The notes below the pieces were generated by a model. It saw only the letters and a program-made list of their open reading frames with translations. It made no database searches and had not been told where the DNA came from. Below are positions 33,525 to 42,723 of a stretch of 62,895 bases of DNA, one piece after another. Made by a program: the position numbers and the translations under genes. This DNA comes from Nitrospirota bacterium (GTDB taxonomy: Bacteria; Nitrospirota; Nitrospiria; 2-01-FULL-66-17). Location: contig JACQCD010000085.1 of assembly GCA_016201825.1 (NCBI GenBank), forward strand, positions 1 to 62,895, written 5' to 3'. How positions within the stretch are numbered: the first letter of the stretch is position 1; each line of letters starts with the position of its first letter.

Positions 33525-34577
33525 GTGAACCTAGAAAACGCGAGCATCCTGATTACGGGTGGGACCGGTTCGTTCGGGAGGCGGTTTGTCAAAACGGTGT
33601 TGCAACGCTTTAATCCCCCGAGGCTCGTGGTGTTCAGCCGTGACGAGCTGAAACAGTTTCAGATGCGGCAGGACTTCCCGATCGATCGATATCCGAACCT
33701 CCGCTTCTTTATCGGCGACGTCCGCGACCGCGATCGCTTATACCGCGCGCTGGACGGTGTCGACGTCGTCGTCCACGCGGCTGCGTTGAAGCAGGTTCCC
33801 ACTGCGGAGTACAATCCGCTGGAAGCGATCAAGACCAATGTCCACGGTGCCGCCAATGTGATTGATGCGGCCATCGACCGGAATGTGAAGAAGGTCATTG
33901 CCCTCAGCACCGATAAAGCGGCCAATCCCATTAACCTCTATGGGGCGACCAAGCTCTGCTCCGACAAGCTCTTCGTGGCGGCGAACGCCTATTCGGGGCT
34001 CCACCGGACGAGCTTCAGTATCGTTCGGTACGGGAACGTGGTGGGGAGCCGTGGGAGCGTGATTCCCTACTTCATCGCCCAGCGCGCGACGGGGTGCCTG
34101 ACGATCACGGATCCGCGGATGACACGGTTTCTCATTACGCTGGACCAAGCGGTGGATTTCGTATTGCAGAGCATCGCGAGTATGGTCGGCGGCGAGATCT
34201 GCGTCCCGAAAATCCCCACGGTGCTCGTGACGGACCTTGCCCGTGTCATTGCCCCGCAGTGCCAAACAAAAATCATCGGGATTCGTCCGGGAGAAAAACT
34301 TCACGAAGTCATGGTGGCCGAGGATGACGCCCATCTCACCATTGAGTTCCCCGATTTTTACATTATTCAGCCGAGCCACTCCTACTGGAACCAGAAGGAT
34401 TTTCTGGATGGGCGGCCCGGCAAGGCGTGTCCCGACGGGTTTCGCTACAGCAGCGACACCAATTCGTGGAAGTTGAGCGATTACGAGATTGCGAAGCTGG
34501 TGCAGATGGTTGAAACCGATTCGACCTTTGACGCGATGCCGAAGGCGACTGAACCGACGTTCATCACTGGTGGATAA
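33525..34577 (+). CDS. pseB: UDP-GlcNAc 4,6-dehydratase (inverting)
   Basis: [64 protein letters not shown]. Confidence 0.95.
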
Positions 34578-34592
34578 ACCGGTGGATAAACC
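34569..34592 (+). repeat. 12-bp tandem duplication (GGTGGATAAACC x2) at the pseB/pseC junction
   Basis: Direct read; in frame in pseC (VDKP-VDKP). Confidence 0.9.
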
Positions 34593-35859
34593 GGACGAGA
34601 ACCCTCACGTGACCGGGCCGCTGCTGAGTTATGGTCGCCAGTGTCTGGACGACGAGGATATCCGCGCCGTTGTCGAGGTGCTGAACGGCGACTGGTTGAC
34701 CCAGGGTCCAGCAGGAGAGCGCTTCGAGCAGGCGCTGTGTGACGAATTCGGGGTCCGATACGCGGTGGTCTGTTCGAATGGAACCGCGGCGCTGCATTTG
34801 GCCGCCCTCTGTCTGGACTGGAAGCCGGGCGACGTGGTGATCGTGCCGGCGATGACGTTTCTGGCGACCGCCAATTGCTGTGCGTATGTCGGCGCCGAGC
34901 CGTATTTCGTTGATATCGATGAGGCGACTCTGACCATTGATCCGAACGAGGTCGAGAGACACCTGCGGCGGTTGCGGACCGAGGGCAAACGCGTGCGTGC
35001 GGTGATCGGGGTCGATATGGCGGGTCACGCCTGTGACTGGCCGGCTTTACGGGCGTTGGCAGATCGGTATGACGTGGCCCTGGTGGACGATGCCTGTCAC
35101 GCCATGGGCGGAACCTACGCCGATGGTGTCAAAGTCGGATCCTGCGCGCATGCCGACGTGTCGACGCTGAGTTTTCACCCCGTGAAGCACATCACGACCG
35201 GCGAGGGTGGGGCCCTGCTCACCAACGACCGGGACATGGCCGACCGGGCGCGGCGACTCCGCAGCCACGGGACGGTCCGGGGACGGGATCAGATCGCCGA
35301 TTGGGACGGGCCATGGCACTACGACATGGTCGATTTGGGGTTGAACTATCGCCTCTCTGATCTGCAGAGCGCGCTGGGGATTTCGCAACTGAAGAAATTG
35401 GGGAAATTTGTCGAGCGGCGTCGTGCGATCGCGAAACGCTATACGGAATGCTTTGCCCCATCCAGTCTGATTCGATGTCCAGTCGAACGAGCTCCAGTCA
35501 AACATGCCTACCATCTCTATGTGGTCCGGGCAAAGTTCGGACCGGACACGATCTCGCGAAACGAGCTCTTCGGGCGATGTCGTGAACAGGGGGTTCAGCT
35601 ACAAGTGCATTATCGGCCGGTTGTCCAGAACACGTACTATGCCCGACAGGCTGCCTATCGTGATGCGCTGAGGTCCCTGCCCGTCTCGTGTGCGGTCTAC
35701 CAGGAGGTCATGTCTCTCCCCATTTACCCGCAGCTCACCGACTCTGATGTCGAGCGGGTGGCGCGGCTCATCATGGAGTTGCTTCCTGGACGTGAAGGAC
35801 GGGTCAGGCCGTCCCCTGACCGATCGAGCGTCCGACGACCGCATCTGAGCGTCCGGTGA
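34570..35859 (+). CDS. pseC: DegT-family aminotransferase (PseC-like)
   Basis: [38 protein letters not shown]; start 34570 or 34609. Confidence 0.9.
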
Positions 35860-36722
35860 TCGATCGGGCGAGTCTTGGCGTTGGAACAGCCACCTTCCTT
35901 CCGCGCTATGGTCTGGCTGGGGAGGAGCTCAACGATTCGCCGCAGGCGGCGCTTTTCCAGTCCGCGGTGGAACAAGGTATCGTGTATATCGATACCGCCT
36001 CGGGGTATGGCGATAGCGAGTGCGTGCTTGGGGGGATGGCGGATCTGCTCACGTCACGCCGCGTGAGGCTCTGTACGAAACTCACTCCGAAGAGCGTGGC
36101 TGAGGGGCTTGGAGAGTCGCTTCGCCGGCTTCGAAGGGATCACGTCGACACGCTGCTGTTGCACAGCGCGCGAGGCGACGAGCTGACCGACCAGGCCGTC
36201 GCCGATGCGTTGGCGGCCATGAAGGACCGCCGCCACACCCAGCGAACCGGCGCCTCGACCTATGGCGCCGCCGACGCGCAACTCGCCCTGGGTCAGCCTT
36301 GGTGCGATGTGGTCCAGGTCGAGCACAGCATTCTGAACCCCTCGGTGGTCACCGTGCTCGAGCGGGCGAAGCGTTCGAACCAAGAGATTGTCGTGCGAAG
36401 CGTCTTGTGCAAGGGGCTGCTGACGGCCCGCCGCCACCGGGCGAGGCATCTGGATGCCTCCGCGAGAACGATGCTTGATCGGATCGAGAGTCGGGCGTTC
36501 GAATGGGGAATGGACCTGGAGGAGCTTGGGGTCCGCTTCGCACTGGACACGCCGGGCGTCGACGTCGTGCTGGTCGGGATCAGTCATCCCGCGGAGTTGG
36601 AGAAGGCGCTGGCCGCAGCACAGCGCCCGCCCCTCGACGCGTGGCAGATGGAGTCCCTGGAGGAGTTTGACTGCTCCATGCAGGATTGGTCCCACCCTGA
36701 ACGATGGTTGGTGCCGACGTGA
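35856..36722 (+). CDS. Aldo/keto reductase
   Basis: LGVGT...YG, IDTASGYGDSE, LLLHS, GASTY, VVRSVLCKGLL. Confidence 0.88.
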   Translation: MIDRASLGVGTATFLPRYGLAGEELNDSPQAALFQSAVEQGIVYIDTASGYGDSECVLGGMADLLTSRRVRLCTKLTPKSVAEGLGESLRRLRRDHVDTLLLHSARGDELTDQAVADALAAMKDRRHTQRTGASTYGAADAQLALGQPWCDVVQVEHSILNPSVVTVLERAKRSNQEIVVRSVLCKGLLTARRHRARHLDASARTMLDRIESRAFEWGMDLEELGVRFALDTPGVDVVLVGISHPAELEKALAAAQRPPLDAWQMESLEEFDCSMQDWSHPERWLVPT

Positions 36723-41201: not shown

Positions 41202-42250
41202 CCGCCAGACCAATCAAGATTGGTGACCGTTTGGTGGGAGATAGGGAACGATGTTACATTGTCGCTGAGGCGGGTAGCAATCATAATGGAAAGTTCGAAC
41301 AAGCACTACGACTTATTGACGTAGCCGTTGAGGCAGGGGCGGATGCGGTTAAATTCCAGACCTTTAAGGCTGAACGAATGTATCCCGAGACAGCGGGACA
41401 GTCTGACTATTTAAAGATCAATCGCTCAATATGTGACATTATCCGTGAGATGGAGATGCCTTCAGATTGGCTTCCTCATCTTGCCGATTATTGCCGCCAG
41501 AGTAACATCGAATTCATCTCTTCTCCATTTGACGAAAGCTCTGCAGATTTATTGGAACCTTATGTGAATGTTTTCAAAGTCGCCTCGTATGAGATGACCC
41601 ATGTCCCGTTACTGCGCCATCTTGCACGAAAGGGAAAACCTTTAATTGTCTCTACTGGGACTGCAACGCTGGAAGAGGTTAAGTCTGCTATAGAGGTAAT
41701 ACGTGCCGAAGGAAGCAATCAGGTTATTCTCCTCCAATGCACGGCCAGCTACCCGGCCCCAATAGATACAATAAATGTCCGTGCGGTTGTCACTCTTCGT
41801 GAAGCTACCGGCTTACTGACAGGGCTCTCAGATCATTCACGAGACCCCATCGTTGCCCCTATGGCTGCGGTCGCGTTAGGGGCATGTCTGATTGAAAAGC
41901 ATTTTACTTTGAGCAATCGCTTGCCGGGTCCTGATCATCAGTTTGCAATAGAGCCTAGCGAACTGGCCGAACTTGTACGCCGGGTTCGGGAAGTAGAAAA
42001 GGTGCTGGGACATGGTCGAAAGGAGACTTTTTCTGTTGAGGATGAATTACGAGCATTTGCAAGGCGTAGTATCTTTGCGACCCGTGATATCTCTGCTCGG
42101 GAAACGCTGACACCTGATAATATTGCGGTTCTACGTTGCGGAAAGTTAGGGTTTGGTCTGCCTCCAATGGAGTTTGACAAAATGTTGGGCCGAAAGGCGG
42201 TAAGACCAATTGCGAAGGAATCCCTGGTTACTTTCGACGCTGTGGAATAA
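41198..42250 (+). CDS. NeuB/PseI-family nonulosonic acid synthase (lower-GC block)
   Basis: VAEAGSNHNG, ADAVKFQT, KVASYE, GLSDHS, IEKHFT, SAF domain. Confidence 0.93.
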   Translation: MTARPIKIGDRLVGDRERCYIVAEAGSNHNGKFEQALRLIDVAVEAGADAVKFQTFKAERMYPETAGQSDYLKINRSICDIIREMEMPSDWLPHLADYCRQSNIEFISSPFDESSADLLEPYVNVFKVASYEMTHVPLLRHLARKGKPLIVSTGTATLEEVKSAIEVIRAEGSNQVILLQCTASYPAPIDTINVRAVVTLREATGLLTGLSDHSRDPIVAPMAAVALGACLIEKHFTLSNRLPGPDHQFAIEPSELAELVRRVREVEKVLGHGRKETFSVEDELRAFARRSIFATRDISARETLTPDNIAVLRCGKLGFGLPPMEFDKMLGRKAVRPIAKESLVTFDAVE

Positions 42251-42252
42251 AT

Positions 42253-42723
42253 ATGAGAATCCGCTTGGCCGATGTGGATGATATCGAACTCCTATGGCAG
42301 TGGAGAAACGATCCAGTGGTCAGACAACATTCTTTCAATTCGGATCCAATTCCCTGGGCTACTCATCAACGCTGGTGTTCCCAAAAGATGAGTTCTTCTA
42401 GTACCAAGATTTACACGCTGGAGGATAGTGGCAAACCGGTTGGACAGATTCGTTATGAACGAATGAATGATGCGACTGCCGAAATAGGTGGTATTTCGAT
42501 TGCCACAGAAGAACGGGGGAAAGGTTATGGGAAGACCATTCTTACCCAAACAATTCCTATCGTGACGGCAGATCTTAAGGTCAAGAACCTGACTGCCCTG
42601 GTAAAGGAAGAGAATATCGCTTCAGCGCGGATGTTCCTGTCATCTGGTTTTTACTTGAATGGCCAGGTTACAAAACATGGATATGTTTGTAGTCATTTTA
42701 TCGTTTCCTGTTCGGATCGTTAA
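42253..42723 (+). CDS. GNAT N-acetyltransferase (PseH-like)
   Basis: WRNDP.VR..S, H..W, GQIRY, RGKGYGK, N.AS..F. Confidence 0.85.
   Translation: MRIRLADVDDIELLWQWRNDPVVRQHSFNSDPIPWATHQRWCSQKMSSSSTKIYTLEDSGKPVGQIRYERMNDATAEIGGISIATEERGKGYGKTILTQTIPIVTADLKVKNLTALVKEENIASARMFLSSGFYLNGQVTKHGYVCSHFIVSCSDR

Follow-up and report, generated by a model that had tools for sequence, protein, structure and literature searches.

The contig JACQCD010000085.1 of a Nitrospirota bacterium (assembly GCA_016201825.1), analysed here over positions 1 to 62,895 of the forward strand (this whole stretch of 62,895 nucleotides being referred to as the window), contains a block of genes for a pseudaminic acid (Pse)-type nonulosonic acid, among which stand an aldo/keto reductase (AKR), a divergent second NeuB-family protein (hereafter NeuB*), and a cytidylyltransferase (CT) fused to a class III pyridoxal phosphate (PLP)-dependent aminotransferase (AT). 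A modified nine-carbon sugar, most likely one with an additional amine, is the probable product of the extra reductase, the aminotransferase and the unusual second synthase. The extra genes are intact and conserved, and they are translated together with the pse genes; what may sensibly be expected of the locus is therefore a nonulosonate other than the standard one. The more specific proposal, namely that the locus makes a Pse-type nonulosonate, that the AKR and the AT turn one of its hydroxyls, most likely that at C8, into an amine, and that the fused CT activates the product with cytidine monophosphate (CMP), is put forward tentatively and with somewhat less than even confidence.

All coordinates given here are those of the window, and family assignments are based on NCBIfam and Pfam models, each read against its own cut-off. 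The block consists of eight genes, all on the forward strand, within 33498-42723, and every gene listed for it in the first-pass annotation was found in its place. Three of the encoded proteins are shared with the canonical CMP-Pse pathway of Campylobacter jejuni and Helicobacter pylori (PseB-PseC-PseH-PseG-PseI-PseF) and score above the respective NCBIfam equivalog cut-offs: PseB, the inverting 4,6-dehydratase of UDP-N-acetylglucosamine (UDP-GlcNAc; 33498..34577; TIGR03589, 512 bits, cut-off 408), PseC, a DegT-type C4 aminotransferase of uncertain start codon (about 34594..35859; TIGR03588, 447 bits, cut-off 423), and the UDP-sugar hydrolase PseG (about 39965..40990; TIGR03590, 218 bits, cut-off 154). 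The window departs from that pathway in the two genes which close the block, as these fall below the PseI and PseH cut-offs. The first encodes a canonical, SpsE/PseI-like nonulosonate synthase (41105..42250; PF03102, 285 bits, cut-off 22.1), which carries the complete set of canonical NeuB active-site residues but reaches only 356 bits with the NeuB model (cut-off 400) and 295 bits with the PseI model (cut-off 340). The second encodes a PseH-like GNAT N-acetyltransferase (42253..42723; TIGR03585, 66 bits, cut-off 93; PF13302, 56 bits). Further, the window has no PseF, the place of which is taken by the AT-fused CT of the SpsF type. The locus also recalls the spore-crust nonulosonate genes spsE and spsF of Bacillus subtilis: the best match of the canonical synthase in the Protein Data Bank (PDB) is SpsE (1vli, 295 bits), and the CT belongs to a strongly diverged sub-clade of the SpsF type.

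The extra genes lie between pseC and pseG. The AKR (35856..36722; PF00248, 101 bits, cut-off 24) has an intact catalytic tetrad (D46, Y51, K75 and H103, by motif position). It is followed by NeuB* (36704..37723), a TIM barrel with an SAF domain (PF03102, 100 bits, cut-off 22.1; PF08666, 28 bits), and by a single 721-residue frame (37720..39885), in which the divergent SpsF-type CT domain (hereafter SpsF*; 37720..38505) precedes the class III AT domain (38506..39885; PF00202, 119 bits), a relative of glutamate-1-semialdehyde (GSA) aminomutase recognized by NF004856 (PRK06209) over the C-terminal 460 residues at 512 bits (cut-off 486). Stop and start codons overlap as GTGA both between pseC and the AKR gene and between NeuB* and the fusion, and the frames of the AKR and NeuB* overlap by 19 nucleotides; the extra genes are translationally coupled to pseC and form one operon with it. 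The G+C content at third codon positions (GC3) of the AKR, NeuB* and fusion genes falls in the same range (0.71-0.78) as that of pseB, pseC, pseG and the gene for an SIS-domain protein upstream of pseB, and an origin of the extra genes as an insertion of foreign DNA is rejected on this ground. Thus, of the earlier statement that they had been inserted between pseC and pseG, the position stands, whereas the insertion event does not, given the native GC3 and the recurrence of the gene order in many phyla.

This recurrence became apparent upon reading the DNA around relatives. The core order pseB-pseC-AKR-CT-AT-pseG-(pseH)-pseI is found in Bacillus litorisediminis, an Omnitrophota metagenome-assembled genome (with CT and AT fused), Roseiarcus, Acidobacteriota, Hyphomicrobiales, Rhodospirillaceae, a gammaproteobacterial metagenome-assembled genome and Cytophagales, and an orthologous AKR lies 3' of pseC in loci L002, L004, L015-L017, L021, L024, L091, L092 and L095. 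The window fits this core order, with NeuB* placed additionally between the AKR and the CT, and with the CT and AT fused. In several Actinomycetota the AKR-CT-AT core stands alone beside a divergently transcribed pseB, one of these loci (L033) also having pseC and pseG nearby. This different layout of the module is seen, for instance, in L028 (6445-11272), where pseB is divergent from AKR-SpsF-AT and neither a DegT gene nor a NeuB gene was found within 10 kb, NeuB being encoded elsewhere in the genome. When six actinomycetotal genomes with an AKR-CT-AT cassette but no NeuB in the stretch read (one of these loci having a pseG) were checked, five proved to encode a NeuB elsewhere, in one case on the same contig about 27 kb away. 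Hence, the idea that the module works without a NeuB synthase was discarded, and the module goes with nonulosonate synthesis at the level of the genome.

Clusters of this type are already known in the literature as gene content. The same order has been drawn for 90 of 96 group I Aeromonas strains in their flagellin glycosylation islands (subgroups IA-IE), with no function given to the AKR and AT (PMC7874193). There, however, the CT is a separate gene named pseF and no NeuB* is reported, and the target is flagellin, as opposed to the lipopolysaccharide (LPS)- or capsule-type context of the window with its Wzy_C protein, ABC transporter and PFTS-motif protein. The LPS cluster of Legionella pneumophila Sg6/12 encodes CapD, DegT, an AKR, an SpsF-type CT, a "GSA aminomutase", PseG, a GNAT and a second NeuB (PMC3694923), and in a Pse cluster of Vibrio an SpsF-AKR fusion precedes a dehydrogenase (PMC7371886). 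Literature searches for the class III AT, for PRK06209 and for SpsF alongside GSA-type enzymes returned gene-content descriptions only and no functional study. Two further systems were considered and set aside, AciA-D/AciE being based on short-chain dehydrogenases/reductases (SDRs) and unrelated, and the rkp-3 genes of Sinorhizobium being ordinary PseB/C/F/G/I equivalents that do not carry the module.

In the pathway proposed here, family membership suggests that PseB, PseC, the GNAT and PseG would convert UDP-GlcNAc to a diacetamido-trideoxy-altrose, which the canonical synthase would join to phosphoenolpyruvate (PEP) to give a Pse-type 5,7-diacylamido nonulosonate. By analogy, the AKR and the fused AT would then serve as a tailoring pair on the free nonulosonate prior to its activation: the AKR would oxidize a free hydroxyl, most likely that at C8 and less likely that at C4, and the AT would convert the ketone to an amine, yielding an 8-amino-8-deoxy Pse-type (tri-amino) sugar. 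The dedicated CT domain, SpsF*, would activate the modified acid, and the PFTS-motif protein encoded downstream, or another transferase, would use the product. A modified acid needs a CT that accepts it, which would explain why the module travels with, and has repeatedly been fused to, a CT of its own. The logic of a dehydrogenase and a PLP transaminase jointly replacing a hydroxyl by an amine is shared with KdnB/KdnA of Shewanella, which convert Kdo to 8-amino-Kdo on the free acid before CMP activation, and with GnnA/GnnB, which convert UDP-GlcNAc to UDP-GlcNAc3N. This is a likeness in working and not in membership, as those systems employ an iron alcohol dehydrogenase or a Gfo/Idh/MocA enzyme together with another class of aminotransferase, whereas the window has an AKR and a class III enzyme.

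The position C8 is favored because EpaA and EpaB act there, and because the third nitrogen of a natural tri-amino sugar is found there. EpaA, a CTP_transf_3-AKR fusion, and the SDR EpaB, both from Acinetobacter baumannii prophages, convert Pse5Ac7Ac to 8-epi-Pse5Ac7Ac, as demonstrated by NMR (PMC12053666). Among CT/AKR pairings in nonulosonate metabolism this is the only one with an experimentally proven function, which is exerted on Pse after its synthesis; such a pair is thus able to act at C8 once the acid is complete. The arrangement in the window differs in that the AKR is separate, the CT is fused to the AT and the block holds no SDR, and the product of EpaA/EpaB is an epimer. A tblastn search of a phage collection with the window AKR gave no match. 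An 8-amino-8-deoxy Pse-type sugar occurs in the O-antigen of Tenacibaculum maritimum (PMC3210612). A further hint comes from Aeromonas hydrophila AH-1, a strain of subgroup IA in which both AKR and AT are present (PMC7874193) and the one strain of these islands with mass data: its flagellin glycan contains a single Pse-like sugar of 403 Da (oxonium ion of m/z 404) in place of the 316 Da of Pse5Ac7Ac (PMC4691044). As its nominal mass is odd, the number of nitrogens should be odd as well, which fits three amino groups and, equally, an acetamidino group. The suggestion of the first-pass annotation that a novel or extra-aminated ulosonate arises by conversion of a hydroxyl to an amine is thus supported in outline by analogy, being compatible with the action of EpaA/EpaB at C8, the 8-amino sugar of Tenacibaculum and the 403-Da sugar of AH-1.

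A number of points weigh against this proposal. The usual activity of AKRs is reduction, and a separate dehydrogenase that could make the ketone is missing from the locus. An obvious second N-acyltransferase for the new amine was not seen in the window. The AKR and AT are not strictly linked: loci L090 and L094 have NeuB*-SpsF*-AT without a nearby AKR, and in L003 an SDR is found in place of the AKR. Moreover, L094 has no DegT gene within 9 kb, and in some loci the class III enzyme might perform the C4 amination itself, replacing PseC. The odd mass of the AH-1 sugar, being explained just as well by an acetamidino group, does not speak for a third amine alone, and C8 as the site of attack is drawn from analogy only. 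A search of the literature found no biochemical or genetic data on AKRs, ATs or NeuB* proteins of this type. As for Tenacibaculum, whose 8-amino sugar has a possible link to the module, the published description of the O-antigen clusters in the type strain of T. maritimum has no NeuB, AKR or class III AT genes, and no named Tenacibaculum protein came up in a protein search that started from a Bacteroidota AT.

The most unusual member of the block is NeuB*, which scores far below the equivalog cut-offs of the family (131 bits with the NeuB model, cut-off 400; 87 bits with the PseI model, cut-off 340). A search with it recovered 653 proteins at E <= 1e-20, and for the best 120 of these, which are 53-65 % identical to the window protein, active-site residues were mapped to the numbering of Neisseria meningitidis NeuB through PDB alignments. 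The few homologues with names come from several phyla (Acidobacteria, Chloroflexi, Vicinamibacterales), and NeuB* represents a large clade with at least 119 cluster representatives. The motif AEVAQGFEG, reported earlier for the window protein, is exact and occupies residues 16-24; it is part of a clade signature, AE-x-AQG(F/Y)EG together with D110, D134, Q184, E186 and M213, that is present in 119-120 of the 120 homologues. Retained in 118-120 of the 120 are E25, K53, Q55, K129, S154, D214, H215, E234, H236, D247 and R314, while the changes fixed across the clade are G27A, I28Q, N29G, H30F/Y, T110D, E134D, N184Q, Y186E and S213M, with S132 mostly replaced by A. The window protein accordingly lacks the full canonical active-site set (E25, K53, Q55, T/S110, K129, S132, S154, Y186, S213, H215, E234, H236, D247 and R314): it has D110, A132, Q184, E186 and M213, and keeps E25, K53, Q55, K129, S154, H215, E234, H236, D247 and R314.

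In the NeuB structure we take H215 and H236 to bind the metal, K53, T110 and K129 the PEP carboxylate, and S132, S154, N184 and S213 the phosphate. If so, the machinery for metal binding and for acid/base catalysis is intact in NeuB*, whereas the phosphate pocket is mostly lost and acidic side chains have been added. By its fold and domain architecture NeuB* belongs to the family, but a PEP condensation of the normal kind is doubtful. The conservation across the clade marks it as a selected enzyme and not a relic. All seven loci read with a NeuB* (the window, L002, L024, L090, L093, L094 and L095) also encode a canonical synthase. In six of them the CT adjacent to NeuB* belongs to the SpsF* kind, the seventh being L095, where the CT is a separate gene outside the comparison. 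Locus L095 probably comes from a close relative, and the synteny with the window is kept from a dehydrogenase via the genes for NusG, the SIS-domain protein, PseB, PseC and AKR to NeuB*, with a class III AT 6 kb further on. The NeuB*/SpsF* pair is the rarer part of the locus, and no description of it was found in the literature searched.

Two of the NeuB* loci stand apart in their content. Locus L093 (3784-18530) has an AKR-NeuB*-NeuB-GNAT-SpsF*-AT cassette full of insertion sequence elements (DDE_Tnp_IS240, rve), and with its truncated pseB and truncated AT is a decaying version of the locus. The metagenomic locus L090 (1-19386) is unusually rich in nonulosonate genes: three NeuB-family genes, two ordinary CTs and NeuB*-SpsF*-AT are accompanied by a NeuC-like epimerase, a thiamine pyrophosphate-dependent enzyme, a 2-hydroxyacid dehydrogenase and a PhyH protein.

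The CT domain itself was barely recognized by Pfam, its 21.7 bits with PF02348 lying marginally under the cut-off of 22.6, and neither the PseF (TIGR03584) nor the KdsB model of NCBIfam matched it. Accordingly, an alignment of six members of the SpsF* sub-clade was compared with one of six ordinary SpsF-type enzymes from related loci. With hhalign the two profiles match at 99.7 % (E 4e-26) over 240 columns at 22 % identity, and the SpsF* profile also matches PDB entry 6oew ("cytidylyltransferase") with an E-value of 1.6e-11. The nucleotide-binding motif reads ACRAGGSRLYGKPL, in which R-x-x-G-S-R-L-x-G-K is retained (the form in the family being R-x-x-S-x-R-L-P-x-K). Of the acidic motifs, D-x-P-E-D is retained and TTESPF (TxESPF in the clade) stands conservatively for TxDCPL; a three-residue insertion follows the K-P-L motif. 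Taken together, the profile comparison and the motifs point to a genuine, strongly diverged SpsF-type cytidylyltransferase. The cytidylyltransferase named in the first-pass annotation can therefore be kept, and assigned to the SpsF type, on the strength of the profile-profile comparison, the recognition by Pfam being marginal only.

No PseF was found elsewhere in the genome, which is 89 % complete; the search recovered only three KdsB-like CTP_transf_3 genes. A further NeuB gene was likewise not found in this 89 % complete genome, and a third "NeuB" match, on genome contig C3, turned out to be a 3-deoxy-D-arabino-heptulosonate 7-phosphate synthase. One of the KdsB-like enzymes (PRK13368 type, 215 bits; contig C97, 1469-3798) is flanked by a GT4 glycosyltransferase and by a radical SAM enzyme of the B12-binding type, and may belong to another modified ulosonate pathway of this genome. 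The SpsF* domain is thus the only candidate CMP-nonulosonate synthetase of the locus, a role to which it is assigned because of its homology to SpsF and, by elimination, because the genome shows no PseF. That a CT other than PseF can do the last step of the Pse pathway follows from Caulobacter, in which six genes, including that for the CT FlmC without homology to PseF, suffice for Pse-dependent flagellin glycosylation in Escherichia coli (PMC7591256).

These features of NeuB* and SpsF* bear on the first alternative, in which the locus makes two parallel products: NeuB* and SpsF* would constitute a synthase-activase pair for a second ulosonic acid, derived from a precursor shaped by the AKR and AT, while the canonical synthase would make ordinary Pse. 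In keeping with such a pair, NeuB* and SpsF* co-vary (in the window, L002, L024, L090, L093 and L094), with the loci devoid of NeuB* having ordinary CTP_transf_3 CTs of 116-130 bits. The pair is also combined with two distant clades of AT, the CT of L024 being 50 % identical to that of the window but its AT only 30 %, and a different substrate would be expected to go with fixed, acidic changes such as those in the NeuB* pocket. However, ordinary Pse would be left without an activating enzyme: in the stretch read, two synthases go with a single CT in each of the window, L002, L094 and L095, L090 being a larger multi-pathway locus; in L024 a BLAST search found no second CT; and the genome of the window shows no PseF. 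Furthermore, most of the presumed PEP-phosphate residues are lost in NeuB*, contrary to what a normal PEP condensation would need. A second ulosonate made by the divergent NeuB, as suggested earlier, is thus a poor fit, and a single pathway is rated above two products as there is one CT for two synthase-like proteins. We consider the two-product arrangement unlikely.

If a single pathway is accepted, NeuB* would be a specialized helper of that pathway as opposed to the maker of an independent second sugar. Possible roles are those of a synthase with an altered precursor or donor and of a NeuB-fold enzyme that acts on the open-chain acid. A more far-reaching version is that the NeuB* clade, with its metal site and carboxylate-binding lysines kept but the phosphate pocket lost, carries out a reaction new to the family, on an open-chain nonulosonate or with a donor other than PEP, and together with the AKR, AT and SpsF* forms a route to tri-amino (8-amino-8-deoxy) Pse-type sugars which has spread by gene transfer through many environmental phyla; we offer this as speculation that is unlikely to hold in all its parts.

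The AT domain is the subject of a second alternative. Its PLP lysine lies at about residue 519 of the fusion and the accompanying aspartate at about 491, in the motifs TWGKAIGNG and ADEMVTGYR. While it passes NF004856, as given above, it reaches merely 169 bits with TIGR00713 (hemL), for which the cut-off is 527, and a separate HemL-like paralog is encoded on genome contig C89. By these scores the AT is probably not the housekeeping HemL, the candidate for that role being the paralog on C89, and the NCBIfam name "GSA aminomutase" is most likely a misnomer for the family. A possible source of confusion may be seen in the hyphomicrobial locus L003 (2824-12090), in which a PseF-like CT (TIGR03584, 117 bits) is fused to the AT and accompanied by a methyltransferase, an SDR and an acyltransferase (Acetyltransf_6), the group coming right behind hemC, hemD and hemY and with no other pse genes within 10 kb; this haem neighborhood, perhaps due to chance, could feed the misannotation of the family as HemL.

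The extra enzymes could, however, bring about a redox change or epimerization without a new amine, and the assignment of the AT to an aminomutase-named family counts in favor of this. The AKR would reduce a keto intermediate with inversion, giving the 8-epi or another epimer, and the class III enzyme would be a PLP epimerase or aminomutase acting on a free amine, or would remove one, with a stereoisomer or a deamino form of Pse as the product. The chemistry of EpaA/EpaB, in which a CT and an AKR yield an epimer at C8, offers a direct precedent, and reduction is the normal activity of AKRs. Further, epimerases are known within the class III fold, with isoleucine 2-epimerase and the GenB-type 6'-epimerase both among the PDB matches of the AT. 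Yet the locus has no SDR or other dehydrogenase partner to provide the ketone, most class III enzymes are transaminases, and the AH-1 glycan differs from Pse5Ac7Ac in mass and not in configuration alone. We regard epimerization as quite unlikely.

The distribution of the AT and its fusions provides the evidence on a third alternative. The AT has thousands of relatives, of which the best 120 are 62-76 % identical to it, mostly stand-alone proteins of about 470 residues, and, where a source is named, from other phyla. It is found fused to three types of CT: SpsF* in the window, ordinary SpsF in L004, L015, L029 and many Bacteroidota, where a fusion of about 700 residues with an ordinary PF02348 domain is very common, and the PseF-like CT in L003. 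As the AT has been joined to different types of CT, the fusion is not new and arose several times. Such repeated, independent AT-CT fusions, along with the AKR-CT fusions of EpaA and Vibrio, point to work on the nonulosonate itself. This runs counter to a model in which the AKR and AT prepare a precursor for N-acylation, for example a hydroxy acid made from an amino acid or amine via the aldehyde, with the CT as a substitute for PseF. In favor of that model, GABA-type transaminases are related to the AT, and a GABA transaminase together with a succinic-semialdehyde reductase makes 4-hydroxybutyrate. Pse and legionaminic acid are commonly found as derivatives bearing acyl groups such as hydroxybutyryl and glyceroyl, and the surroundings of the module vary in their acyltransferases, ATP-grasp enzymes and methyltransferases. 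Against it, there is also no acyl-activating enzyme beside the AKR/AT pair in the window, and we judge it very unlikely. Finally, that the extra genes are decaying passengers without function, as might be read from a CT domain just under its Pfam cut-off and a NeuB* far under its equivalog cut-offs, can practically be dismissed, being contradicted by frames that are open and coupled, by intact catalytic motifs, and by conservation (identities of 62-76 % for the AT to homologues in several other phyla and 53-65 % for NeuB*, with the NeuB* signature in 119-120 of 120).

Turning to the origin of the locus, NeuB* is rare in the phylum of the window, being found in three of 301 genomes, the two others merely 36-38 % identical, while its best relatives with a source name come from other phyla. 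This suggests that the cassette arrived by transfer, although in composition it is native today. Within the block, the compositionally foreign genes are not the extra ones but those for the canonical synthase (pseI) and the GNAT (pseH), as their GC3 is 0.44 and 0.43, respectively, as against 0.71-0.78; by this measure both are recent acquisitions. The spacer between pseG and pseI (41013-41105) further contains a short frame, IEIDGRRVGPGQP, that resembles the N-terminus of a NeuB-family synthase, and it looks as though the foreign copy recently replaced an original pseI, perhaps together with pseH.

As decorations of flagella, capsules and LPS, nonulosonic acids govern serotype, the adsorption of phages and recognition by the immune system. 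In many phyla, Pse clusters contain two to four enzymes more, including the clusters of Aeromonas (90 of 96 group I strains) and of Legionella outside serogroup 1. Because of this extra module, genome-based predictions of Pse5Ac7Ac are probably wrong for a large share of the loci labelled as "pseudaminic acid". If the product is indeed an 8-amino sugar, the module would account for how the Tenacibaculum-type tri-amino nonulosonate is made, a route so far missing, and would yield enzymes for chemoenzymatic synthesis. The NeuB* clade, in turn, represents a natural experiment in the rewiring of the NeuB active site.

The block lies in a high-GC polysaccharide biosynthesis region with nearly all genes on the forward strand. 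On its 5' side are genes for a Wzy_C protein, a phosphomannomutase, a UDP-sugar dehydrogenase, epimerases and RmlC, followed by two forward-strand genes at its head. These encode a NusG paralog (32323..32841; PF02357, 72 bits), which is a candidate operon-specific antiterminator, and the GmhA-like SIS-domain protein (32858..33421; PF13580, 45 bits), which resembles sugar-phosphate isomerases but falls below the cut-offs of all GmhA models. In L001, L091 and L095 a NusG gene lies 5' of pseB, either directly or with the SIS gene in between; in L092 one is found close to the cassette. The paralog is often preceded by an HTH_24 protein, with the SIS-domain protein coming next in the window and L095. 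Its recurrence in unrelated genomes suggests dedicated antitermination for long sugar operons.

On the 3' side of the block are genes for the PFTS-motif protein, methyltransferases and an ABC transporter. The first of these, a forward-strand gene for a PFTS-motif polysaccharide biosynthesis protein (42724..44658; TIGR04417, 147 bits, cut-off 100), follows the GNAT gene immediately. Proteins of this family occur with the cassette in four loci from different phyla, i.e., the window (42724-44658), L002 (19518-20471), L015 (16763-18721) and L024 (12882-14858), the last being fused to a GNAT domain. The PFTS-motif protein is a candidate for the transfer or polymerization of the activated sugar.

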